The notes below the pieces were generated by a model. That model worked only from the letters and a program-made list of their open reading frames with translations. It was not told where the DNA came from and did not search any database. A program made the translations under genes and the position numbers. From the NCBI GenBank assembly GCA_030037875.1, contig JASHPV010000007.1, positions 10,041 through 74,040 of the forward strand: DNA of 64,000 bases, read 5' to 3'. This document shows, one piece after another, positions 8,670 through 50,000 of the stretch; the first letter of the stretch is position 1, and every line of letters begins with the position of its first letter. The stretch is from Thermoplasmata archaeon. GTDB lineage: Archaea > Thermoplasmatota > Thermoplasmata > Lutacidiplasmatales > UBA184.

Positions 8670-8933
8670 ATGCGGTTCGGATGGGCGTATTGGCTCCTGG
8701 GAACGCTCCTTGCCATCACCGCGGTGATGCTGGTACCGTCGATACTGATCTCCGCATACAGCGCGGTCCCCCCGCTCCCGTGGACGTTCCTCGCCCTCTA
8801 CGGAACGGTCGCGTTCCTCTGCGCCCTCGGTGCGGCGCTCCTCCTCCGCAGAGGTCGGGTTCTTCTTCACGCGGATTCCATCATCGGTTTAAAGAGCGGG
8901 CACGACGATGAGAGCCGCGGGCCTGTAGCTTAG
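8670..8933 (+). CDS. Small two-TM membrane protein (hypothetical)
   Basis: 87 aa with two hydrophobic helices. Its 3' end overlaps the tRNA 5' end by 16 nt, which lowers confidence. Confidence 0.3.
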   Translation: MRFGWAYWLLGTLLAITAVMLVPSILISAYSAVPPLPWTFLALYGTVAFLCALGAALLLRRGRVLLHADSIIGLKSGHDDESRGPVA

Positions 8934-9027
8934 CTGGGACAAAGCACTGGCCTTCTAAGCCAGCGAACTCGGGTTCAAAGGCCGGCGGGAAGTGATCTTC
9001 CTTTCGGCGGAAACTCCCGACAGGCCC
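8918..9027 (+). tRNA. tRNA-Arg (anticodon TCT) interrupted by a ~35-nt intron in the T-loop (position 59/60 or 60/61)
   Basis: Hand-folded. Acceptor GGGCCTG/CAGGCCC is 7/7 WC. D-stem GCTT/AAGC. Anticodon stem CTGGC/GCCAG with loop CTTCTAA. T-stem TCGGG (8968-72) pairs CCCGA (9015-19) only after skipping 8979/80..9013/14. A14, G18G19, A21, U33, G53, C61 are present. Confidence 0.6.
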
Positions 9028-15530: not shown

Positions 15531-15818
15531 GACTTGGCCCTGGTTGTCGTCCGAAGGGTTCGACAGCCATCGAAGTCCTCGCCGAGAACTCAGGCTGGAT
15601 GGGAAGTGGACTGGGCGAGATTTCCCGGTGCCGGAGGAGACGCCTCCGGCCCCTTTGAACTCGCGACCTCTACCTTGCCAAGGTAGCGATCTTCCGCTGA
15701 TCTACCAGCCCACCGAGGCGGCGGAGTACGGCCGGACAATAAGCACTTCGCCGCAGGGGTGCCCGTTCGCTGCCGAAATGGAAGAGTTAATGGGGACGTG
15801 GCCCGTCCGCGCCCACCG

Positions 15819-25398: not shown

Positions 25399-26418
25399 AT
25401 GCCGGCGTCTGTCGCGCGGTCGATCGCTCAGGACCGCCGTCCTCCCCCGGCCGGCACGGCCTCTGCGAGCCAGTACGTGAACCAATGGACCGAGGCCGAG
25501 GCCCTCGGAACAGAACGGGTCCGGGCTTTCGTGCTGATTCTTCGAACCCGCGGTTGTTACTGGGCGGACGTGAAAGGTTGCTCGATGTGCGGGTACGCCA
25601 AAGATACGCTCGGACGTTCGGCTACTCCCGAAGAGCTCGGCCGACAGCTCGAGGCCGCGCTCCAGGTGTACCATGGCGAGCCGTACGTTAAGATCTACAC
25701 GTCGGGCAGTTTCCTCGATGACCGAGAGGTGGACCCGGACTCCCGCCAGCGTCTCGTCGAAGCCTTCAGTGGCCGTGCCCGCCGCCTGCTCTTCGAGACA
25801 CTGCCCGAGTTCGCGACGGCGGAGGCACTGAATCCCCTGCGGAAGGCCTTCTCCGGAGAGATCGAGGTGGCGCTGGGCCTCGAAAGCACCCAGCCAGAGG
25901 TGCTCCTCCGATACGTGAACAAAAATTCGCCGCCGGAGGCCTATCTCGACGCGGCCGACCGGGTCCACGGGCTCGGACTCCGGGCGAAGGGGTACCTCCT
26001 GTTGAAGCCCCCGTATCTGACCGAGCGAGAGTCGATCGACGATGTCGTGACGTCGGTTCGGGTGGCGGCCCCGCATTTCGATGCTCTATCGGTCAACCCG
26101 GTGCACATCCAGAACGGAACGGTGGTCGAGTGGCTCTTCCATCGGGGCCGTTATCGGCCTCCTTGGTTGTGGAGCCTCTCGGAGGCGATGCAACGCTCCG
26201 CGGCGCATCGCGGCACCACCCGTCTCGTGACGTTCCCGACGGCCGGGGGCCTCGCGCGCGGCCCGCACAACTGCGGAGTGTGCGACCGGGCCTTTCTCTC
26301 CGCATTGGAGGAGGCCTCTCTGTCACAGCGGTTTGAGGGCCTCGCCGCCTTGGCCTGCGCCTGCGGAAACGAGTGGCGAGCCGACGGCGCCCTGGAGCCG
26401 CTGGGGGTGGAGGCATGA
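25399..26418 (+). CDS. Radical SAM-like protein with non-canonical Cys cluster (TIGR01210/RaSEA-like family, tentative)
   Basis: Internal ATG 25399 (MPASVARS...) of ORF 25198..26418. Cys cluster RTRGCYWADVKGCSMCGY (C-x7-C-x2-C). TIM-barrel-like remainder. ATGA overlaps with both neighbours. Confidence 0.5.
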   Translation: MPASVARSIAQDRRPPPAGTASASQYVNQWTEAEALGTERVRAFVLILRTRGCYWADVKGCSMCGYAKDTLGRSATPEELGRQLEAALQVYHGEPYVKIYTSGSFLDDREVDPDSRQRLVEAFSGRARRLLFETLPEFATAEALNPLRKAFSGEIEVALGLESTQPEVLLRYVNKNSPPEAYLDAADRVHGLGLRAKGYLLLKPPYLTERESIDDVVTSVRVAAPHFDALSVNPVHIQNGTVVEWLFHRGRYRPPWLWSLSEAMQRSAAHRGTTRLVTFPTAGGLARGPHNCGVCDRAFLSALEEASLSQRFEGLAALACACGNEWRADGALEPLGVEA

Positions 26419-30551: not shown

Positions 30552-31910
30552 TTAACCCATCTGGCTTGATAGAAGGCCAGGTTCCGGACCGCGGGGAGCG
30601 AGGTGTCGACGGGCCGACGGCGTAGGGTGGTACCGGCCCAACGGGAACTCCGGGGGGACGCGACGAAGCCTCCGGATTTCCGGAGGGGCCCGGTGCCGGC
30701 ACCGGGAACAACGGAACCCCCGGCCCACGCCAAGGGACCCCATGCGATGCCCACACCCCGGGCAGCGAGGATTCTCCCGCGCGATGAAACGCGGCCGCAA
30801 CGAGAGGAGGTCAACCCCCTCGATCCGGAATACGGAGTCTTCTTGGGACCCGCCCCACAGCCGGACCCGATCGCCCGGGAGAAGGCTTCCGACGACCCGG
30901 GGAAGGGTCTTCGTCGGCTCGAAGACGGCGCACCGCACCCGAGGTCCAGAATCCAGCTGAAGCGGGAAGAACACGTGACCGCCCCGACGGGCCACGGGGC
31001 GCTCGGCCAACCGACCCGAGACGGTGCCGGCCGTGAACGGGACGGCGGGAACCGGCCAAGGTTGTCGCACGTGGTCCCCCGTCCCCTGGTTGGTTCGGAA
31101 CAGAAGCCAACGCTCGATCGGCTCAGAACGGATCTCCTGCACGGCTGCGATGGCGGCCGCCGGCTCCGTCGCCCGGACGCCGAACAGGATCGGGCAGGCG
31201 GTGTGGGGGGTAATGAGGAGGCGCCGGGTCCGCGGGTCGAGGCACAAGAACAGCTCCGGGTGGCGCCTTACTGTCACATCCACCGAGCCACGGTCTACAT
31301 TCCGGGCGGTTCCCCAGCGCATCGGATCTCGATAGGCGATGGCTTCCCACGTGGGGTGGCCGCCCGGCCAAGCGAGCGCCGCGGCCGCCCCGATCTGGCC
31401 GACGCCCGAAGGGGTCGAGCGAACGATGGGATCGGTCCCGACGAGCCATCGCTGGACCTCGTCCATCGTGACGATACGTCGGACCGCTTCCCAATAGAGT
31501 TCCGAGGGGGGTTTACGCCGGAGCACGAGGAGGGCGGGGTCCGTCCCGGGGTCTGAGCCCGCCGACGTCGACTGGACCGTGGTCCACAGTCGGTCCGCGA
31601 GTTCGAGCCGTTCGGGCTCCGTGAGGTCTCGCGCCGAGGGGTAACTGCGGGCCGGCCCGTTCGGAAGCGACCCCACGGCCGTGGGAGTTCCTCGACCATG
31701 GCCGAACCGCGCTACCAACGCCGCGTTGCCCCGAGTCTTGGTGGGAACGTTGGGGTTCAATCGGACGAGGCGAGGCTCCCCAATGAGGTCGAACCCGAGG
31801 GCGTTCGCCGCCCGGAGCACCTCCGTCAGAGTGTAGGTCGTGCAGCCTCGTTGGGGGCTATCCGTGTCGTCTACTCCGACCCAGACGACGGTCCCACCCC
31901 CGCCTCTCCC
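30552..31910 (-). CDS. tiaS: tRNA(Ile2) 2-agmatinylcytidine synthetase TiaS (start codon unresolved)
   Basis: GEPRLVRLNPNVPTKTRGNAA and C-terminal Zn ribbon CPGCGH...CSRC. The conserved N-terminal VWVGVDDTDSPQRGCTTY is encoded in frame upstream of the track's GTG (31820), back to a TAA at 31911..13. Confidence 0.8.
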   Translation of the reverse strand, partial: GRGGGGTVVWVGVDDTDSPQRGCTTYTLTEVLRAANALGFDLIGEPRLVRLNPNVPTKTRGNAALVARFGHGRGTPTAVGSLPNGPARSYPSARDLTEPERLELADRLWTTVQSTSAGSDPGTDPALLVLRRKPPSELYWEAVRRIVTMDEVQRWLVGTDPIVRSTPSGVGQIGAAAALAWPGGHPTWEAIAYRDPMRWGTARNVDRGSVDVTVRRHPELFLCLDPRTRRLLITPHTACPILFGVRATEPAAAIAAVQEIRSEPIERWLLFRTNQGTGDHVRQPWPVPAVPFTAGTVSGRLAERPVARRGGHVFFPLQLDSGPRVRCAVFEPTKTLPRVVGSLLPGDRVRLWGGSQEDSVFRIEGVDLLSLRPRFIARENPRCPGCGHRMGSLGVGRGFRCSRCRHRAPPEIRRLRRVPPEFPLGRYHPTPSARRHLAPRGPEPGLLSSQMG

Positions 31911-32839
31911 TTAGAGGAGCTCTCCGAGGGCGGAGTGGCGCTCTTCCGCCGTCGGCGCCGCCACCGGCGGACCACAAGGCCCACCCCGACGCCCGCGGCG
32001 ACCACAATCGCGCTTACGATCAGCGCGTCGCCGGTGGGGAACGAGGGGCCGAACTTGATCACGATGGTGTGCCCGGGGAGCGGGATGTACTGACCCGATG
32101 CAGAGGCTGATCCCCACCCGAACGGGTCGTTCGAGACCGACGTGGCGTTCAGGCCGGTGACCGATGTGATCGTGATAGCCGCCGGCGTCACGAATGAGAC
32201 GTTCACCGGGCTGACGGGCACGCTGAGGTTTCCCAGGATCGCGGGAAGGTTCCACGCGACCTGAAACGTATGGGCGTTCCCCACTCCGCTCCAACTGAAC
32301 ACGACCGCCAAGGTGGCCGTCACGCCGATCGGCGCCGACGAGTCGTCGGCGCCGAGGGCGTTGCTGAACGAGACACCCTGCAGCTGGTCCGAGACGGGGA
32401 CATTCCCGTCCATCGTGACGTTGAGCACTCCGGTGATCGTGCTCACGGGAATCAGCTTCGCCTCGCTGTCGATCAGAGCCACGAAGCGTTGAACGTCCAC
32501 GGTGTTCACCCGACCGTCGCGGTCGCCGAACAATCCGGCGAAGAGCGGATTGCTCTCGGTGGCGTTGATCTCGGCAAGAATGGCGGCCCTCGACGCGTTC
32601 GTCCCCGGGAACAACGCGACCAGCGGCCCGAAGTAGCCGTCCATGGCGTACCGTAGCGCCGAGCCGTTCGCGACAACGGTCTCGAGTCCGGCGGAGATCG
32701 TGCCGTCGCTGCTCAACGTGAGGTGGATGCCGGACGCTGGAGCGCTTCCGCTCGTCGCGGGCAGTCCCGCCCCGAGCCCAAGGGCGGCTACCGCGAGGAC
32801 CAGCAGCAGTCTCGATCCGTGTCGAGGACGTCCGAGCAT
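31871..32839 (-). CDS. Secreted surface protein: Sec signal peptide, sequon-rich domain, C-terminal TM anchor with Arg-rich tail
   Basis: Internal ATG 32839 (MLGRPRHGSRLLLVLAVAALGLGAGLPATSG). Sequons NGS, NAS, NAT, NVT, NLS, NVS. C-terminal IVSAIVVAAGVGVGLVVRRWRRRRRK. Confidence 0.55.
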   Translation of the reverse strand: MLGRPRHGSRLLLVLAVAALGLGAGLPATSGSAPASGIHLTLSSDGTISAGLETVVANGSALRYAMDGYFGPLVALFPGTNASRAAILAEINATESNPLFAGLFGDRDGRVNTVDVQRFVALIDSEAKLIPVSTITGVLNVTMDGNVPVSDQLQGVSFSNALGADDSSAPIGVTATLAVVFSWSGVGNAHTFQVAWNLPAILGNLSVPVSPVNVSFVTPAAITITSVTGLNATSVSNDPFGWGSASASGQYIPLPGHTIVIKFGPSFPTGDALIVSAIVVAAGVGVGLVVRRWRRRRRKSATPPSESSSKGEAGVGPSSGSE

Positions 32840-32864: not shown

Positions 32865-33740
32865 CTACCCGGCGGTCGCGAGCAGCTTCTGGTAGGCCGG
32901 GAGGTTGTGCTCCAGAGCGATATCGGCCCGGGCCGGGCCGACCATGTCGGGGAGGAGCTTGAGCTCGAGCGGATTGCTCGCGGCATCGGACGGCTTGCCG
33001 GGTCGGTGCATGACCCCGACGGGGATCTTTCCCGCGTTCATCGTTTCGGTGCAGAGCCGGAACACGGCGGACCGGTCGGTCGGATCGTAGCCGGGCAACT
33101 TCTCGATGTTGACGATCTTCTCGCGCCACTCCTTGAACGTGTCGTTGTACGTGACGCAGGGAGAAAGATCCTCGACGAACGCGTAGCCCCGGTGGTCCCG
33201 GTTGAACTGGAGCGCCTCCGACAGGACCGCTGTCATCGTCTTTGGGTCTCCCGAGAAGGTCCGGGCGACGAAGGCGCCGGTGGGGATCGAAAGCGCGGTG
33301 AGGATGGCGTCGAACGGAACCTCGATGTTCCCTTCGAACCCGAGGCGGGACGTCGGCGAGGCTTGGCCCTTCGTGAGCCCATACGTCTCGTTGTTCATCA
33401 CGATGTACAGGATCGAGGCGTTCTTCTTGAACGCGTGCATGAAGTGGCCCATCCCGATCGCGTACCCGTCGCCATCGCCTCCGGCCGCGATCACGGTCAG
33501 CTGGGGGTTCGACAGCTTGAGGCCGATGGCTTGGGCCAGCAGGCGACCGTGGAGCGCGTGCACTCCGTTGACGTCGATGAAATTGTGGATCCCTCCCGAG
33601 CAGCCAATCCCGCCGACGAGCACGGCTTCGTGGGGGGGAATCTTCAGGTCGACGAGGGCTTTCTTGGCGGCCGCGAGGACGCCAAAGTCCCCGCAACCGG
33701 GACACCAGGTGTTGGCCGTCGGTTTAGCGCTTTGTACCAT
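32865..33740 (-). CDS. korB: 2-oxoacid:ferredoxin oxidoreductase beta subunit (TPP-binding)
   Basis: Internal ATG 33740 (MVQSAKPTANTWCPGCGDFG). TPP motif GDGDGYAIG. Overlaps the alpha-subunit stop. Confidence 0.9.
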   Translation of the reverse strand: MVQSAKPTANTWCPGCGDFGVLAAAKKALVDLKIPPHEAVLVGGIGCSGGIHNFIDVNGVHALHGRLLAQAIGLKLSNPQLTVIAAGGDGDGYAIGMGHFMHAFKKNASILYIVMNNETYGLTKGQASPTSRLGFEGNIEVPFDAILTALSIPTGAFVARTFSGDPKTMTAVLSEALQFNRDHRGYAFVEDLSPCVTYNDTFKEWREKIVNIEKLPGYDPTDRSAVFRLCTETMNAGKIPVGVMHRPGKPSDAASNPLELKLLPDMVGPARADIALEHNLPAYQKLLATAG

Positions 33741-41194: not shown

Positions 41195-41656
41195 ATGGCC
41201 GCTTCACCGGTCGGGTCGGGCCCTCCCGAACGTCTTCCGTATCTCCTCGACCTCTATCCGCTCGAGTCGGCGGCGCAGACTCGCCTGTCGCCATTCTTCG
41301 AGGCCTTGCACCAGGGGCGATTCACGACCACTCGTTGCCGCAAGGACGGTAAGCTCCTCTGGCCTCCGCGCGTCGTGTGTCCCGTCTGTCACACGACCGA
41401 GCTCGAGTGGGTGGACCTGCCCGCGACGGGCCGGATCTACGCCTTCAGCGCCCTGTTGGCCGGCGCGCCGATCGGTCAGGAGGCCGACCTCCCTCGTGTC
41501 GTGGGACTGGTCGAGCTCGACGGCGTGCCCCTTCGGCTCTTCGGGAGACTGCTCGGTGTCGATTGGCAGGCGTGCCGAATTGGCCTCCGGGTCCGCCTGG
41601 AGCCGCTCGCACTGCCGGATGGACGAGCCTACTACGCGTTCCGCGTAACACCGTAG
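41195..41656 (+). CDS. DUF35 Zn-ribbon/OB-fold protein (second copy, paired with the second thiolase)
   Basis: RCRKDGKLLWPPRVVCPVCH zinc ribbon plus OB-fold. Possible upstream TTG start at 41105. Confidence 0.75.
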   Translation: MAASPVGSGPPERLPYLLDLYPLESAAQTRLSPFFEALHQGRFTTTRCRKDGKLLWPPRVVCPVCHTTELEWVDLPATGRIYAFSALLAGAPIGQEADLPRVVGLVELDGVPLRLFGRLLGVDWQACRIGLRVRLEPLALPDGRAYYAFRVTP

Positions 41657-41705
41657 TCCGACGGGGATTTTCCGGGCGTCCCACCGGCGAGAAATTTGCC
41701 AAAGG

Positions 41706-41711
41706 ATTTAT
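41706..41711 (+). promoter_or_regulatory. TTTATA box upstream of aglB
   Basis: aaggaTTTATAcggg lies ~50 nt upstream of ATG 41760. Confidence 0.3.
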
Positions 41712-41759
41712 ACGGGCCCCGGACTGCGCGGCCCGCCGGTTCGGGAGATCCGGCCGAGG

Positions 41760-44700
41760 ATGGACTCTGAATCTGGCAGCTGGTGGAGCCGTTACGGCTG
41801 GACGACCACCATCTTGCTCGTTGCTTTCGCTGCGGCGTTCATCGTTCGGGTCATTTTCTCGCTCAGTGTCTTCGAGCAGTGGGGCTGGCTCTACGTCTAC
41901 GGGGGCGGTTCGGATTCGTTCTACCACTGGCGAGTGGCGGACTACATCCTCACCAATCACACGAACCTGATCCACGATTCGCTGCTCAAGTATCCCGTCG
42001 GCGCGACCAATCCACGCGAACCGCTGTTCGACTGGATGAACGCGATCTTGGGGATCATCTTCGCGCCGATCTTCGGCGGAAGCGCCGTCAATGCCGCGGC
42101 TTTCTTCCTCAACCTAGACCCGCCCCTCTGGTCGGCTCTCTCGGTCTTCCCGATCTACCTCATCGGGAAGGAGGTCAGCTCCAAGCGGATGGGCCTCGTC
42201 GCGGCCATCACCTACCCGTTCGTCGTCGGGAGCATTCAGGCCGCCACGTTGGGCTACGCGAACTATCTGCCCTTCTACACGTTCTTCATCCTGATCTACT
42301 TCTACGCCTACCTTCGCACAGCGAAGCTGGTCGGAACCAAAACCTACATCACGAGCTTCCGACACCCAAGTGAGGTCCTGGCCGGTTTGCGGCGGTTCCT
42401 CCGCGAGGACCGCCTCGCGGTGAAGTGGGCGGTCTTCGCCGGCGTCTCGCTGGGCGCGCTCGCACTCGCCTGGCAAGGGTATCCGCTCGCTGTCGCGATC
42501 GTCATCATCTCGCTCGCCGTCATTATGGTGGTCGAGCGGATCCGGCGGATCGATTCGGTCAACCTGTACCTCGCGACGTGGATCGCCGGGCTCGTCGGGT
42601 TCCCGATGGCCGTGCCCTACTACCTTGCCCAGCACCTGTTCGCCACCTGGTTCGACCTCCCGCTGCTGATCTATTTCGGCGGACTCGTACTGCTCTTGCC
42701 GTTCGTGCTCCTGCGCCAGTATCCGTGGGTCGTCACGGTGCCCTTGCTGGGGGGCGTCGTTCTGGCCGGTCTGGCGGGTTTCGCATTCATCGCCCCTGCG
42801 TCGTTCCAGACGCTGATCACGGGCCAGGGCTACTTCGCGAAGACGCTGATCTACTCGACGGTCGCCGAGGCTCAGGCCCCCTCGTTCGATGCGCTTGTGC
42901 TGTCGTACGGGGTCCTGACGTTCTTCCTCGCGTTCGTGGGTCTCGGGCTGTTCGCGATTCACCTGATCCGGCAACGGTTCCGCCGGGAGCACGCCCTCTT
43001 TGTCGTGTTCGCCGTCGTGAGTATCTACCTCCCGGTGTCGGCGGCCAAATTCTTCTACCTCGGTTCGCCGGCCTTCGCGCTGCTTCCCGCGGAGGCACTG
43101 CTCCTCATCCTGGACGTCGCCGGCTACCCGCAACTCCGTCGAACGGCGGCCTCCCTCTCCGGTACCCGGGGTCAGTTCACCGCGTTCCGGCGCGCGTTCA
43201 AGGCCCGCCACGTGCTGGTTCTCCTGCTCATCGTCGTTATCCTGGTGCCGAACGTGTGGTATGCCGTCGACGCGGGAATACCCTACAACACCAAGGCCAC
43301 CTACAGCACCCAGGTCTACGACACGCTGCCCCCGGCGCTCCGTACGACCCCGGCCAACGCGTCGAGCTTCTACCTCGGCGCCTCGGGCACGGAACTCGAT
43401 ACGCCCAATCAGTACGACGAGGCCGGGTACAACTGGCTCGCAACGCAAGATACGAATCTCGCCCCGGCGGCCCGGCCCGCGTTCATCAGTTGGTGGGATT
43501 ACGGATTCCAAGCGATCGCCGAAGGGCAGCATCCCTCGGTCGCCGACAACTTCCAGAACGGTATCCCGGCCGCCGGGAACTTCCTCCTGGCCCAGAACGA
43601 ATCCCTCGCCATCGGCGTGCTCGCCACCACGCTTCTCCAGGCGGAGGAAGAAACGAGCGGATACGCCTACCTTCCTCCGGCGCTCAACGCGATCCTAGCC
43701 TCCGATGGCGTGAACGTCGCCGAGTTGCACACGCTGCTGGCGAACACGTCCGCCGACCTCCCGCTCGTGATCGACCATCCGGAGCGCTACCTCCCGGTCA
43801 ACCCGAAAACGATCACCGCGACCAACGCGATGTTCGACGCGGTAAGCTGGTTCCTCGCCAACACGCTTCCCGAGAACGGAGTGGCGCAGGTGTACGACGA
43901 TATCCAGACCTACACGGGCTGGACGATCCGGTACGCGATGGTCGATGACCGGCTGTTCCCCTTCTCGGGGACGAACACCGGCATCTTCTACGCGCCGGCC
44001 GACCTCACGGGCCGCGTCATCGGGCTGGACGGCGCCCCGACGTCGTACTACACCATCGAGGCGGTCGGCTCGGACGGGAACGTGTACCCGATCAACGCGG
44101 TGCCCTCCGGGGTATCGGTGGTGAACTACGTGCTGAACCAGCTCGCGCCGTTCTACAACTCGATGATCTACCGCATTTACATGGGCTATAACGGGACCGA
44201 CATCGGGCTCAGCGCCGGAATCCCCAGCCTCGAGGGCTCTCTCACGAGTTACACTCCGGAGCCCGGGTGGATGCTCCAGCATTTCGAGGTCGCGTACCGG
44301 ACCGCCTTCTACTCGCCGACGCCCACGACCTCGAGCAGCGCCTGCGACATCGCCACGAACCTCCCGGAGGCGGCCCTCCTCGCAGCGAAGACGAACGGCA
44401 CCGCCAACGTCGGTCCCGACTGCTATTTCTCCAGCGGCGAATCGATCCTGGAGTACTATCCCGGAGAGATCCTCTCGGGCACGGTGACCCTCCCCGATGG
44501 AACCCCCGTCCCGGGCGCCCGTTTGACGGTCTACGACGGCTGGCACATCCCCCATCAGACGGTCCTGACCTCCGCCGACGGAGGGTTCTCCGTGATCCTG
44601 CCGCCCGGGAACGACACCCTGAACCTCACGAGCGGGCCGTTGCAGGGGCTGGCCCAGAACGGCACCGAGCTCCTGGACTCGATTCCCCTGGTCGTGGACC

Positions 44701-47700
44701 CGGCCCTCGGGTTCAGCCTGGAGGCGCCCCCGATCGCCCAGAACTTCGTTCTTCAGCCGGGCTCCGTCAACGGCTTCGTTTACTGGAACGCGACCGGAAA
44801 TTCGACCTACGACTCGTCCGTGGACCCCGTGGCCGTGGGGGCCAACGTTACGCTGGGCGGCCCCGGTCTGCGTACCTACAACGCGACCACGGACACGGAC
44901 GGTAGTTTCCGTCTGACCGATGTCGCTCCCGGGGTCTACAACTTCACGGTGCGAGCCGGAGGCGCAACATTCTCCCAGGGCCAGCTGGCGGTCCGGCCCG
45001 GCGCCGCCGCGAACGCGACGGCCGGGCTCGTCCCGTCGAAGGTCACGGGAACGGTGAAGCTGGAGGACGGAACTCCGGCGGTCGGCGCCACGGTCACGAT
45101 CTCGGACCCGGCCGGGCTGTTGGAGGCCGCGGCGACGAACGGTTCGGGGAGCTACACCTTCGCCAATCTGGTCCCGGGGAACTACTCGGTGAAGGCCGAG
45201 TCGGGCGTCAACCTGGCCGCCAACGCGACGGCCGTGGCGCTCAACCAGACCGTGAAGACCGTGACCCAGAACTTGACGCTCATCCCCGTAGTCCCCGTGG
45301 ACTTCGAGGTCGAGGCCGGAGGGGCCCCCGTGCCGGGCTTCGTGGTCCGGATGACGCCCATCCGGGAGACGTCCGGCCTTCCGGGCGCGCAGGCCCCCCG
45401 GCCGACGGACGCGCTCGTCTTCACCAGCGACGCCACCGGGTACGTCCACGCGAACCTGCCGGCCGGCAATTACTCCATCTATGGATACGGACCGGTCGGG
45501 TCGACCTTCCTCGCCGGTTTCGAGAGCGCCTATCTGCCCACCGTCGGGGCCCGCATCGCCGTTGCCCCGCTCCAGCTGTCGCCCGCGGCCTCCCTTTCGG
45601 GCCGATCACCGCTTCCCGCGGAGGTCCCCACCGTCGACCTAAGCGCGACCCAGGTGGCGCTCTATGACAGCGCGGGCAACGAGCTCACCTTCTTCGCGAA
45701 CTCGACCGGCAGCTGGTCGGTCATGGCCCCCGTGGGGAATTACAGCGTCCAAGCCTTGGCCGTGGGCATCGCCGCCGGGGCGCTGAACTACTCTGCCGTC
45801 GGTTACGTGGACCTGTCCCGGGCGACCTCTGTCTCGTTGCCGCTGACTCCGGCCTTCCGATACTCTACCCAGGTGGGAACGCTGGTACCTCCGGACGCCA
45901 CGTTCTACCCCGCCTCCGCTTCCGAGGTGCACCTTACGGTGAACCCCGCGGGTGCGACGATCAGCACGCTCACCGATTACAACGGTTCGACGAGCTTCCT
46001 GCTCCCGACGGCCGAACCGGATACGACGTACTGTCTCGCGGTCCAGAGCAACGGGTACGGAAGCTACTCCGCCTGCAGCCTCTCCGTCGGCGAGCTGACG
46101 GCGATTTCACGGGTCATTCTTCCATTGTTCAACGACACATTGAGCGTGACCGTGACCGGATTACCGTCCGGAGCTATGTTACGGCTCAACGCCACGTCGC
46201 TCGGCCCGCCGGCCCAAACCCTATCGGTGGCCGGCGGCGCATCCTTTGATGTCTCGTTGGCGCCGGGGACGTACCAAATCACGGCGTGGGCCCCACCCGC
46301 GTCCGGCGCGGGGGTCTATCTCCCCGCTCAATCCGTCAACGTCACCCTCCCGTTGGGAGGGATCACCGTGAGTTTGGGGGTCCAGCTGTACTTCCAGTTG
46401 GCCGCCAAAGGGGTTCTGAGCCTCCCGACCGGGGTGACGGCCTCCGCGGTCCAACTGAAAGTGTACGCGCCCCCGTTCAACTTCTCGGTGTCGGGGACGG
46501 TCTTCGAGAAAGGATTTGACATCGCTCCGGGAGTCTACTCGGTCTACGCCTCCGCCCTGGTCTCCGGGGTGAGCTATGCTTCGTTGAGTCAGGTCACGGT
46601 GAGCTCGAGCGGCGTCGCCACGCCGACCGTGAGCCTCGCGAGCGGCGTGTCCTTGACCGCGACGCTCGTCGGCCCGGGAGGTGCGCCCCTCAATCTGACC
46701 GCGCCCGTGTACTGGAGCGGGCCCGACGATTCCCAGCTCTACTCCGTGGCCGTGGACGGCACCGTGACGCTCTCGCTCCCCGGCAGCGCGATATACACGC
46801 CCCAGCTGAACGTCACCCTCACCACGAGCGTGAACGGCATCCTCCGGTACGTGACCTACGCGGTGGTGCCCGGGACCAGCTGCTCTGTCGGAACGACGGC
46901 CTCCGAGTGCTCGATCCCGCTCTCCGCGACGTACCTCGCCGCCGGCATCGCAGGTCAGTTCGACTGGAACGGCGCCCCGCTCACGATCCCGGGTACCGTG
47001 CAGCTGATGGGGCCGTTTCCGTCGACCAACATCTCGGTGGTCACGACGACGAACGGCCTGTTCACAGCCGCTGTGTTGCCAGGAGTCTACACCCTGTACG
47101 CCACCGCCGGGTCGGGCGCGGGGGTCGTCGCGAGCCTGGTGCAGGTCACGGTTCCGTTCCCTTCGACGAACATCACGGTCGACCTCGCTCCCGCCTGGAC
47201 CGACACGCTCACCCTGCTCGCGCCGAGCGGAGTCTCGTCCTCTCCCACCGGGAATGTGACTTGGACGAACGCGGCGGGGGTCTCCTGGACCGTGTCGGGT
47301 GTGCCGCTCGGTGTCGTGGAGGGCTGGGTCCTTCCGCAGGGCGTCTGGACGGTGTCGGCCAACGGCACGATGGCACCTTACGGACGCCCGGTGTCGGCAC
47401 TCGCGACCGGCACCGTGTCGTTGGTGACAGGAAACCAGGCCACCAACCTCGTGCTGATCCCTCAGTTCACCCCGGCCGTGACGATCGCGACCCGGCTTCC
47501 CGACACCGCCACGGTGCCGGCCGGCGGCCTCGCGACCTTCTCGTTCACCGTGCAGAACACGGGGAACGAGCCGGTGACCATCCGCTTCTACGGCGACCCG
47601 GCGGCCTGGAATTTCACGTTCACGCCGGCCACGATGACGCTCGGGGTGGGCTCCGGGAACTCGACCGGGGGAGGTACGGTGTTGGTCCGAATCCCGTTGG

Positions 47701-48320
47701 GCACGGACACGAACCACCCGCCCGTCGTCCTCGGCGCCGTGCTCGTGTCGAATCGCGCGCAAACCGTGGGCACTTCGGTTCCCTCCCCCACGGTCTCCAT
47801 CATCCCGGTACCCGCGATTACCGTGGGCCCCGGCTTGAGCCCCACGGTGACGCTGAAGACCGCGACGGTGAGCTTTGTCGTCCAGAACACGGGGAACTCT
47901 CCTTACTCGGCCGCGGTGAGCGTCGTCAACCAGGCGGAACTGGAACAGCTCGGCTGGTCGGTCGCGTTGATGAAGGGCCTCGGCGCGGTGACCGCGCCGT
48001 ACGACTTCGCGCCGGGTCAATCGATCACGTTCTCGGTCGTGCTCTCCACAACTTCCTTCGCCCAGGCGCCGGGTACCGTGGTGGTTCAGGCCGTCGACCT
48101 GAATTCGTCGGGCAACGTCGTCGCGTCCGCGGAGCTCCCGGTGCCCATCGCCTCCATCGCGGCCCCGAGCGGTATCTCCGTCAGCGGCCCGAACGTCGGC
48201 TCCCCGCCCATCATACCAGACTGGGGGTGGACCGTGATCGCCATTCTCCCCGCGGTGGCCTTCCTCGGGATCGTGCTAACGGTCCGATGGTGGCGTACCC
48301 GCCGGTGGACCCGGAGGTGA
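41760..48320 (+). CDS. aglB: Oligosaccharyltransferase AglB (STT3 family) with a very long C-terminal extracytoplasmic extension and C-terminal TM anchor
   Basis: 2186 aa. N-terminal ~13-TM STT3 core with WWDYG motif (FISWWDYGFQA). ~1300 aa of repeated beta-sandwich-like segments (GTVTLPDGTPVPGARLTVYDG, GTVKLEDGTPAVGATVTISD). Ends ...ILPAVAFLGIVLTVRWWRTRRWTRR. Confidence 0.85.
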   Translation: MDSESGSWWSRYGWTTTILLVAFAAAFIVRVIFSLSVFEQWGWLYVYGGGSDSFYHWRVADYILTNHTNLIHDSLLKYPVGATNPREPLFDWMNAILGIIFAPIFGGSAVNAAAFFLNLDPPLWSALSVFPIYLIGKEVSSKRMGLVAAITYPFVVGSIQAATLGYANYLPFYTFFILIYFYAYLRTAKLVGTKTYITSFRHPSEVLAGLRRFLREDRLAVKWAVFAGVSLGALALAWQGYPLAVAIVIISLAVIMVVERIRRIDSVNLYLATWIAGLVGFPMAVPYYLAQHLFATWFDLPLLIYFGGLVLLLPFVLLRQYPWVVTVPLLGGVVLAGLAGFAFIAPASFQTLITGQGYFAKTLIYSTVAEAQAPSFDALVLSYGVLTFFLAFVGLGLFAIHLIRQRFRREHALFVVFAVVSIYLPVSAAKFFYLGSPAFALLPAEALLLILDVAGYPQLRRTAASLSGTRGQFTAFRRAFKARHVLVLLLIVVILVPNVWYAVDAGIPYNTKATYSTQVYDTLPPALRTTPANASSFYLGASGTELDTPNQYDEAGYNWLATQDTNLAPAARPAFISWWDYGFQAIAEGQHPSVADNFQNGIPAAGNFLLAQNESLAIGVLATTLLQAEEETSGYAYLPPALNAILASDGVNVAELHTLLANTSADLPLVIDHPERYLPVNPKTITATNAMFDAVSWFLANTLPENGVAQVYDDIQTYTGWTIRYAMVDDRLFPFSGTNTGIFYAPADLTGRVIGLDGAPTSYYTIEAVGSDGNVYPINAVPSGVSVVNYVLNQLAPFYNSMIYRIYMGYNGTDIGLSAGIPSLEGSLTSYTPEPGWMLQHFEVAYRTAFYSPTPTTSSSACDIATNLPEAALLAAKTNGTANVGPDCYFSSGESILEYYPGEILSGTVTLPDGTPVPGARLTVYDGWHIPHQTVLTSADGGFSVILPPGNDTLNLTSGPLQGLAQNGTELLDSIPLVVDPALGFSLEAPPIAQNFVLQPGSVNGFVYWNATGNSTYDSSVDPVAVGANVTLGGPGLRTYNATTDTDGSFRLTDVAPGVYNFTVRAGGATFSQGQLAVRPGAAANATAGLVPSKVTGTVKLEDGTPAVGATVTISDPAGLLEAAATNGSGSYTFANLVPGNYSVKAESGVNLAANATAVALNQTVKTVTQNLTLIPVVPVDFEVEAGGAPVPGFVVRMTPIRETSGLPGAQAPRPTDALVFTSDATGYVHANLPAGNYSIYGYGPVGSTFLAGFESAYLPTVGARIAVAPLQLSPAASLSGRSPLPAEVPTVDLSATQVALYDSAGNELTFFANSTGSWSVMAPVGNYSVQALAVGIAAGALNYSAVGYVDLSRATSVSLPLTPAFRYSTQVGTLVPPDATFYPASASEVHLTVNPAGATISTLTDYNGSTSFLLPTAEPDTTYCLAVQSNGYGSYSACSLSVGELTAISRVILPLFNDTLSVTVTGLPSGAMLRLNATSLGPPAQTLSVAGGASFDVSLAPGTYQITAWAPPASGAGVYLPAQSVNVTLPLGGITVSLGVQLYFQLAAKGVLSLPTGVTASAVQLKVYAPPFNFSVSGTVFEKGFDIAPGVYSVYASALVSGVSYASLSQVTVSSSGVATPTVSLASGVSLTATLVGPGGAPLNLTAPVYWSGPDDSQLYSVAVDGTVTLSLPGSAIYTPQLNVTLTTSVNGILRYVTYAVVPGTSCSVGTTASECSIPLSATYLAAGIAGQFDWNGAPLTIPGTVQLMGPFPSTNISVVTTTNGLFTAAVLPGVYTLYATAGSGAGVVASLVQVTVPFPSTNITVDLAPAWTDTLTLLAPSGVSSSPTGNVTWTNAAGVSWTVSGVPLGVVEGWVLPQGVWTVSANGTMAPYGRPVSALATGTVSLVTGNQATNLVLIPQFTPAVTIATRLPDTATVPAGGLATFSFTVQNTGNEPVTIRFYGDPAAWNFTFTPATMTLGVGSGNSTGGGTVLVRIPLGTDTNHPPVVLGAVLVSNRAQTVGTSVPSPTVSIIPVPAITVGPGLSPTVTLKTATVSFVVQNTGNSPYSAAVSVVNQAELEQLGWSVALMKGLGAVTAPYDFAPGQSITFSVVLSTTSFAQAPGTVVVQAVDLNSSGNVVASAELPVPIASIAAPSGISVSGPNVGSPPIIPDWGWTVIAILPAVAFLGIVLTVRWWRTRRWTRR

Positions 48321-49622: not shown

Positions 49623-49955
49623 TCGCCCTCGGGGACGCGTGCTCGCGGTCCCGTACGGGCAGTTTCTCGAGGCGTATCTCCTCGCTTACGGGACCGTGGG
49701 GTACGGGCCTTGACACCTGGCCGCCGGAATCCGGGTCTCCCTCGCTCCCAACGGAACGGCGTGCACGAAGTCGTCGTAGCTCAATCCCAGCACCTGGACA
49801 GAGGGGTTCGCGGAGAGGCTCGTGCCGGCCTCGGCGCGGCGCTCGGAACACCTCGCAAACCCTTTTCTCCCGAGTTACTCTGGTTCGCGCGCGGCCGGGA
49901 TGGGGTAGTCTGGCCTATCCTGGGGGACTGTGGATCCCTCGACCCGGGTTCAAAT

Positions 49956-49980
49956 GGGGACGGGGACACCCCCCGTCCCC
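49956..49980. other. Perfect 10-bp stem hairpin GGGGACGGGG-acacc-CCCCGTCCCC in the intergenic region between convergent genes
   Basis: Read directly in the sequence. Lies ~20 nt beyond the stop of the minus-strand HAD gene and inside the tRNA-like region 49890..50000. Confidence 0.3.
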
Positions 49981-50000
49981 GGAGAGTCTCGGTCCCGGCC

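Follow-up and report, generated by a model that had tools for sequence, protein, structure and literature searches.

We analyzed a 64,000-nucleotide stretch of DNA from a Thermoplasmata archaeon (contig JASHPV010000007.1, positions 10,041 to 74,040; hereafter the window, numbered from its first letter, with a GC content of ~68%), and in particular its tiaS gene, in which the first canonical start codon lies downstream of the most conserved part of the protein. The evidence makes it likely that this tiaS is a real and intact gene under purifying selection and that its translation would begin at a non-canonical codon of the GUC/AUC/AUU series. Comparison with related loci suggests that the start is most likely GUC 31889-31887 in the window, AUC in sister lineages, and AUC or AUU immediately before a Trp codon in distant members of the order.

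The tiaS frame, on the reverse strand, is closed upstream by an in-frame TAA (31913-31911), and the first canonical codon after it is GTG 31820-31818, where the open reading frame (ORF) lister placed the start of a 422-amino acid (aa) tiaS ORF. The 30 codons between the two contain no in-frame ATG, GTG, or TTG; they read GGG AGA GGC GGG GGT GGG ACC GTC GTC TGG GTC GGA GTA GAC GAC, then ACG GAT AGC CCC CAA CGA GGC TGC ACG ACC TAC ACT CTG ACG GAG, and they encode the best-conserved portion of TiaS (WVGVDDTDSPQRGCTTY). The original prediction, made from the letters of this DNA, had described this arrangement accurately to the base (the TAA, the codons, and GTG 31820 were all verified), and had rightly placed the end of an upstream surface-protein gene within the segment in another frame, as its TAG (31873-31871) lies in the +1 frame.

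By its domain content and its similarity to a solved enzyme, the protein is TiaS, the tRNA(Ile2) 2-agmatinylcytidine synthetase, and its predicted activity here is the formation of agmatidine on tRNAIle2(CAU); a tRNA scan found no tRNAIle2 gene within the window. The stop-to-stop translation matches the three TiaS Pfam domains: TiaS_TCKD (PF22641; residues 10-156, profile positions 1-144 of 156, E 3.9e-38), FLD (PF08489; E 1.4e-28), and the C-terminal zinc ribbon (PF23783; E 1.8e-10). The first position of the TCKD profile aligns to residue 10, which is the Trp of WVGVDDTDS, so the domain is matched from the beginning of its profile only when the translation takes in the segment upstream of GTG 31820. 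The same order of TCKD, FLD, and zinc ribbon is found in the Archaeoglobus fulgidus TiaS (AF2259; PDB 3AMT/3AMU/3AU7), which matches with an E of 1.7e-62 (3AMT_A; 3.5e-62 for 4RVZ_Z) and whose N-terminus aligns with that of the window protein residue for residue (VWVG[IV]DDTDS...CTTY). In this alignment, M-R-V-W-V-G-I-D-D-T-D-S of A. fulgidus corresponds to T-V-V-W-V-G-V-D-D-T-D-S in the window, so that the position of the A. fulgidus Met corresponds to the first GTC, 31889-31887: where A. fulgidus opens with a canonical Met, two residues ahead of its Trp (M-R-V-W), the window has GUC.

The NCBIfam model NF040849 gives 235.8 bits with the full form and 205.9 bits with the truncated one, a loss of ~30 bits without the segment. 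Neither form reaches the curated cut-off of this TiaS equivalog (600 bits), the model appearing to be tuned to a narrower group, and scores so far below the cut-off account for the name "DUF1743 domain-containing protein" carried by the NCBI-named entries of the closest relatives. Among 65 TiaS sequences, 66 columns are at least 95% conserved, and ten of these fall within the 21 residues from the Trp to GTG 31820 (W1, G3, D5, D6, T7, D8, S9, C14, T15, and T16), corresponding to the motif WxGxDDTDS...CTT at 31883-31836 of the reverse strand. In A. fulgidus TiaS, these conserved positions would include the acidic site for ATP/Mg and Thr18, which is autophosphorylated; the DDxD motif and Thr18 are reportedly required for ATP use and autophosphorylation in that enzyme. 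The claim that a form starting at GTG 31820 would lack essential residues is thus borne out as far as conservation goes, with 10 of the 66 near-invariant columns lost, while the specific catalytic roles are reported from work on A. fulgidus. To judge from these comparisons, the segment is genuine TiaS sequence and no chance match.

The DNA of 89 related loci was retrieved, among which the subclade of the window is represented by 21 distinct sequences (from Microflora Danica, JOPF, SubAcS/AcS, JGI, and ENA assemblies). The closest database protein (97% identity) is encoded on an independent ENA contig, L084, which aligns to the window over 4.8 kb at 97.5% nucleotide identity (118 mismatches in 4,808 aligned bases and no gaps) and carries exactly the same codons from the TAA to the TGG (TAA...GGGGGTGGGACCGTCGTCTGG). 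All 21 in-clade loci read G/A-G-G/A GGT GGG ACC followed by GTC (13 loci) or ATC (8 loci), and none of the 21 has a canonical start at this position. The codon that follows is more variable (GTC, GTT, or GGC), and the sequence then continues as TGG GTC GGN GTN GAC GAC. In the window, L084, L003, and L007, an in-frame stop precedes the Trp codon by seven to nine codons, and in L035 by 21, which excludes an upstream canonical start in these loci. No ATG, GTG, or TTG occurs between the closing stop, 7-21 codons ahead of the Trp codon, and WVGVDDTDS in the window, L084, L003, L007, L035, L014, L017, L047, or L051, and in L003 just seven codons are usable (TCC GGG GGT GGG ACC GTC GTT), none of them canonical. 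Over the 40 codons from the Trp codon onward, variable sites among the in-clade loci are distributed 16/8/35 by codon position, and the substitutions in the segment are mostly synonymous; such third-position-dominated variation indicates that the tiaS frame is translated and under purifying selection.

Automated gene calls hide this arrangement. All 23 of the closest database proteins (P0001-P0023, 65-97% identity, from Thermoplasmata metagenome-assembled genomes, or MAGs) are N-terminally truncated at assorted downstream codons, and the callers' choices of start differ among relatives, giving products of 357 to 422 aa. In homologs of no more than 56% identity, the protein starts as MTWIGIDDTDS or MWIGIDDTDS. 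Aligning orthologous tiaS loci, a check proposed with the original prediction, thus showed GTC or ATC to be constant in the subclade and the canonical orthologs to begin upstream of DDTDS.

The window most likely belongs to the Lutacidiplasmatales, a high-GC Thermoplasmata order, as several related MAGs (SubAcS15-31, SubAcS15-120, SubAcS13-64, and AcS1-45) are Lutacidiplasmatales genomes with ~69% GC (PMC9287336). Distant members of the order (50-55% identity) carry GG(A/G)GG(T/C)GGGAC(C/G) and then ATC or ATT immediately before the Trp codon. This was found in 16 of the 16 distant distinct loci in which none of the three codons ahead of the Trp codon is a canonical start, although in two of them (L019 and L048) an extra GTG four codons upstream, inside the motif, leaves the start ambiguous. 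The same position is occupied by ATG in L009 and L062 and by GTG in L020, L025, and L027, and other lineages have an ATG one to three codons upstream. A separate and more distant Thermoplasmata group, with the motif DDTDSL, always has ATG, TTG, or GTG. In a neighbor-joining tree, ATC is widespread and the canonical codons are scattered, and within the subclade of the window at least two to three changes between ATC and GTC are seen (L007, for example, has GTC and its sister L035 has ATC). From this distribution, ATC looks ancestral for the order. We lean toward the view that the entire order translates tiaS from AUC or AUU, and one subclade from GUC, which would be the first conserved start other than AUG, GUG, or UUG to be described in Archaea. 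A literature search found nothing on a non-canonical tiaS start or on a conserved AUC or GUC start in Archaea, where tiaS has been reported to be essential in most species.

The codon is preceded by a strong candidate ribosome-binding site. The sequence GGTGGGACC is invariant in the 21 in-clade loci, the three bases before it being GGG, GGA, or AGG, and the proposed GUC lies five bases (GGACC) downstream of the GGGGGUG heptamer, a geometry that matches that of the ATC or ATT, ATG (L009), and GTG of the orthologs. The GUC of the window is therefore at an equivalent distance from the Shine-Dalgarno motif as the orthologs' starts but differs from AUG at two positions. Within the window, the spacing of 7 nucleotides (nt) between GGGGG and GUC equals the GGGGGTG-to-ATG spacing of a 268-codon open frame (Shine-Dalgarno at 26403). 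This comparative evidence favors the non-canonical GUC start that had been one of the two explanations originally put forward.

With an archaeal 16S rRNA 3′ end GGAUCACCUCCU, which was assumed and not taken from these genomes and which underlies all the duplex energies given here, the predicted duplex at the tiaS site has an energy of -14.7 kcal/mol. It outranks the regions before the first canonical start of 40 likely window genes (best -13.2 kcal/mol) and stands within the top 0.88% of all window positions. Over the 20 nt before the proposed start, the median pairing was -14.7 kcal/mol for 25 distinct non-canonical contexts versus -7.35 kcal/mol for 10 loci of the same clade with canonical starts (Mann-Whitney p = 1.6e-4, not corrected for phylogeny). 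If the site makes up for a weak start codon, a strong Shine-Dalgarno in front of it is what one would expect to see. A scan of the window for the 7-mer GG[AG]GG[TC]G in front of long frames returned 127 hits at 68% GC and was uninformative on its own, and the duplex-energy ranking was used instead. The stop-to-stop translations of 10 further window genes, each having 20 or more codons ahead of its first canonical start, showed no Pfam domain that begins upstream of this start, a test that is sensitive only where a Pfam domain begins at the N-terminus; a genome-wide use of non-canonical or relaxed initiation is thus unsupported.

RNA structure around the start gave no signal (RNAalifold covariation term 0.02; single-sequence z-score -0.25). 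A GUCGUCUG/UAGACGAC hairpin and a pairing of the Shine-Dalgarno with AGCCCC were considered as regulatory structures and rejected, with no covariation and a stability no better than that of shuffled sequences. The proposed start and the Val codon (GTCGTC) are reverse-complementary to the GACGAC of the invariant Asp-Asp pair (31846-31889, reverse strand); the 7-8 bp hairpin that these could form would enclose the proposed start, is without statistical support, and would gain one G-C pair from the A-to-G change in the start codon.

In the window, the TAG of the upstream membrane-protein gene begins 14 nt past the GUC, giving an overlap of 19 nt with tiaS. The end of this conserved gene falls 13 nt beyond the Trp codon's first base in most members of the subclade and in L012, L022, and L044. 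The protein has 322 aa, with an N-terminal signal or transmembrane segment, many N-x-S/T sites, a C-terminal transmembrane segment followed by an Arg run, and the tail GVGPSSGSE; it has no Pfam or NCBIfam hit. The overlap makes its tail GVGPSSGS[GE] share bases with the Shine-Dalgarno motif and the start, and in its frame, the A/G change that distinguishes ATC from GTC is silent (CCA/CCG). The membrane genes of L007 and L035 stop 17 nt short of the Trp codon, and their TAG immediately precedes GGGGGUGGG. This end is 30 nt earlier than in the window (L007:2944-3063 and L035:328-447 compared with window 31871-31901), and the overlap-encoded GVGPSSGS tail therefore seems dispensable.

In its non-canonical alternative, the original prediction had coupled TiaS to this upstream gene. 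Such coupling is plausible for the subclade of the window, given the 19-nt overlap and the proximity of the upstream stop to the proposed start in the window and most of its subclade, but it cannot be the whole explanation, as in the outgroup ATC relatives a gap of 40-60 nt separates porB from tiaS without any overlap. Many ATC loci lack the membrane gene; in these, 43-62 nt lie between the end of porB and the Trp codon of tiaS, so initiation there must be de novo. Since non-canonical starts occur without overlap, the overlap and a possible termination-reinitiation would be a feature of the subclade and not a requirement.

According to gene calls on L084 and six further loci, the operon runs porA, porB, membrane protein, tiaS, a gene of ~355 aa, and hisS. 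Only some members of the order have the membrane gene at this place; elsewhere, tiaS comes next after porB, behind a spacer of 40-60 nt (compared loci L008, L014, L017, L028, L041, and L042), and in several relatives the conserved ~355-aa gene, without a Pfam hit, and then hisS follow tiaS. The features of the locus are collected in Table 1.

Table 1 Features of the tiaS locus in the window.
Feature	Positions	Strand	Basis or remark
Proposed full-length tiaS coding sequence	30552..31889	-	445 codons plus stop 30554-30552; start GTC 31889
Proposed initiation codon GUC	31887..31889	-	AUC in 8 of 21 distinct in-clade loci
Shine-Dalgarno-like motif GGGGGUGGG	31893..31901	-	Conservation and predicted 16S pairing
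Conserved TiaS N-terminal segment V-WVGVDDTDSPQRGCTTYTLTE	31821..31886	-	Absent from the ORF call
GTG chosen by ORF callers, judged not to be the real start	31818..31820	-	Codon not conserved; weak Shine-Dalgarno pairing
In-frame TAA closing the tiaS frame upstream	31911..31913	-	Found also in L084
Upstream membrane/surface protein gene, 322 aa	31871..32839	-	Translation; start according to the gene call in the 97.5%-identical L084
porB-like gene, operon context	32865..33740	-	TPP_enzyme_C, PFO_beta_C

In the mechanism that we propose, the 3′ end of the 16S rRNA would pair with the Shine-Dalgarno-like motif and place GUC or AUC in the P site. The initiator Met-tRNA would read this codon with a mismatch at position 3, plus a G-U wobble at position 1 in the case of GUC, and the product would begin M-V-W-V-G-V-D-D. 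In the subclade of the window, ribosomes ending the overlapping membrane-protein ORF may in addition re-initiate at the start site. Output might amount to a few percent or less of the AUG level, which the cell may tolerate or even favor, as AUA represents only about one codon per 1000: ATA accounts for 14 of the 14,699 codons of 40 window genes (0.95 per 1000) and is absent from tiaS. The weak start probably keeps TiaS scarce in an AUA-poor genome, and one may speculate that an excess of TiaS is harmful, for example by acting on other tRNAs with a CAU anticodon. In high-GC Burkholderia, reduced TilS activity raised fitness (PMC12514573).

Codons of the interval other than the first GUC have also to be considered as the place of a non-canonical initiation, for example GUC 31886-31884 or ACC 31892-31890, which we regard as rather unlikely. 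L003 offers only its seven codons, none canonical, from which to choose, and the second GUC is still at a usable spacing, but this second codon varies among GTC, GTT, and GGC as a sense codon would, and ACC/ACG is never replaced by a canonical start in the orthologs. It is the first codon that shares its spacing with the orthologs' ATC, ATG, or GTG.

An unlikely explanation is that ribosomes enter the tiaS frame by a -1 frameshift, either out of the membrane ORF, with a fusion anchored in the membrane as the product, or from the +1-frame GUG that GGGGGUGGG contains, the latter by a slip of the P-site tRNA-Gly from GGA to GGG. In its favor, a -1 shift would lead from the frame of the membrane ORF into that of tiaS, and in most of the subclade this ORF extends over the start; every in-clade locus also has the GUG in that frame, the sequence as read would permit re-pairing from G GGA to GGG A, and an alternation of Ile and Val suits a sense codon. 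However, no X XXY YYZ heptamer exists at the site, no significant downstream structure was found in the RNA analysis described above, in L007 and L035 the motif lies beyond the end of the membrane ORF, and many ATC relatives have no overlapping ORF at all. The out-of-frame GTG is itself missing in L008, L011, L014, L041, L042, L043, L044, and L064; frameshifting from the GUG inside the motif was rejected as a general mechanism, these eight loci having ATC or ATT without that GTG. The two possibilities differ in their predicted products: a GUC or AUC start predicts the N-terminal tryptic peptide MVWVGVDDTDSPQR, or VWVGVDDTDSPQR once the Met is removed, whereas a frameshift predicts ...GVGTVVWVGVDDTDSPQR or MGTVVW....

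It is very unlikely that the true start is GTG 31820 or another downstream codon, with a TiaS devoid of its first ~22 residues and an upstream similarity that is only a relic. GTG 31820 is the first canonical codon, the choice of the ORF lister, and that of the callers in the closest relative (P0001), but the segment before it is conserved with mainly synonymous change, ten near-invariant positions of the family would be lost, and the Shine-Dalgarno pairing before this GTG is weak (-5.4 kcal/mol). The homologous codon in relatives is GTG, GTC, ATG, CTG, or CTC and hence not a conserved start. The decay of tiaS to a pseudogene, in a lineage of high GC content with little use for AUA, would agree with the rarity of this codon and the lack of a canonical start, but it is highly improbable, as the 445-codon frame is intact in every locus with mostly third-position variation, the arrangement is kept across an order-level clade, and AUA codons persist (14 in 40 genes). 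Finally, the assembly or sequencing error also suggested in the original prediction, the true codon at 31889 being GTG or ATG, is contradicted by the comparison and hardly credible: a single substitution would repair the gene and a run of five Gs lies nearby, but an independent assembly with 118 differences over 4,808 positions has the identical sequence, and 20 other distinct loci, from several projects and assemblers, have GTC or ATC with an undisrupted frame.

Several points weigh against initiation at the GUC and AUC codons. The organism is known from metagenomes only, and the assignment of the start rests on comparative sequence data. GUC is two positions away from AUG and belongs to the weakest initiating class in Escherichia coli (bioRxiv 10.1101/063800). 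The alternation of ATC and GTC is equally expected of a conservative Ile/Val sense codon, and as the two are synonymous in the overlapping frame, it may be driven by the upstream gene. Dual coding with the tail of this gene could also partly explain the conservation of the Shine-Dalgarno motif, which nonetheless persists in L007, L035, and the non-overlapping loci. The duplex energies depend on an assumed 16S 3′ end, and the Shine-Dalgarno comparison ignores phylogenetic non-independence.

Conserved near-cognate starts are known in bacteria, where the E. coli genes infC, encoding IF3, and pcnB, encoding poly(A) polymerase I, have AUU start codons. These cases resemble tiaS in combining a conserved near-cognate start in a housekeeping gene of RNA metabolism or translation with a usable Shine-Dalgarno and a low or controlled output, but they are bacterial and use AUU, whereas the archaeal tiaS would use AUC, AUU, or GUC, the last with two deviations from AUG. 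The AUU of infC is part of an autoregulatory loop that acts through the start-codon proofreading of IF3; no such loop is evident for TiaS. Termination-reinitiation has reportedly been found by Huber et al. in 2019 to couple overlapping gene pairs in archaea and bacteria. The window resembles such pairs in having same-strand genes, an upstream stop near the downstream start, and a Shine-Dalgarno inside the upstream ORF. Typical coupled pairs overlap by 1 or 4 nt and have canonical starts, while the overlap is 19 nt here with a non-canonical start, and the tiaS relatives, unlike overlap-coupled pairs, keep the non-canonical start without any overlap. In a survey of initiation from the 64 codons in E. 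coli, AUC, AUU, and AUA initiated at 1-2% of the AUG level and other codons at 0.1-1%, with an N-terminal Met (bioRxiv 10.1101/063800). Initiation from AUC and AUU with Met makes the proposed mechanism physically plausible, and GUC is expected from these measurements to be very weak; they were obtained with artificial reporters in a bacterium, whereas tiaS would be a natural and conserved use in an archaeal order.

Elsewhere in the window, tRNA and Rfam scans showed nothing relevant to the tiaS locus. ARAGORN called a tRNA-His(GTG) at 49894-49984 (+) that, with 91 nt, is longer than a standard tRNA and may contain an intron. Two Rfam tRNA matches, at 8919-8977 (+) and 15656-15711 (-), cover the full model (1-71) in 56-59 nt at or just above the gathering score and are not called by ARAGORN. 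A single open frame of 2,223 codons with a strongly coding-like GC3 of 0.87 (41649-48320, +) apparently encodes a giant protein.

As gene finders allow only ATG, GTG, and TTG, the closest TiaS entries are truncated, and inferences on metabolism or translation capacity from MAGs can wrongly score AUA decoding as defective. The tiaS locus also forms a natural and phylogenetically replicated series of AUG, GUG, AUC, AUU, and GUC, with a Shine-Dalgarno strength that changes in step, which could be used for testing how archaeal ribosomes and aIF1/aIF2 select start codons, a process of which, to our knowledge, little is known outside a few model species. If the proposed start is true, archaeal start-codon proofreading can be overridden by a strong Shine-Dalgarno, whether or not re-initiation contributes, and a non-canonical start would hold TiaS at a trace level in genomes nearly free of AUA. 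This suggests that the dose of the enzyme separating the decoding of AUA (Ile) from that of AUG (Met) is deliberately minimized where AUA is rare, in parallel with the fitness gain from a weaker TilS in high-GC Burkholderia (PMC12514573).

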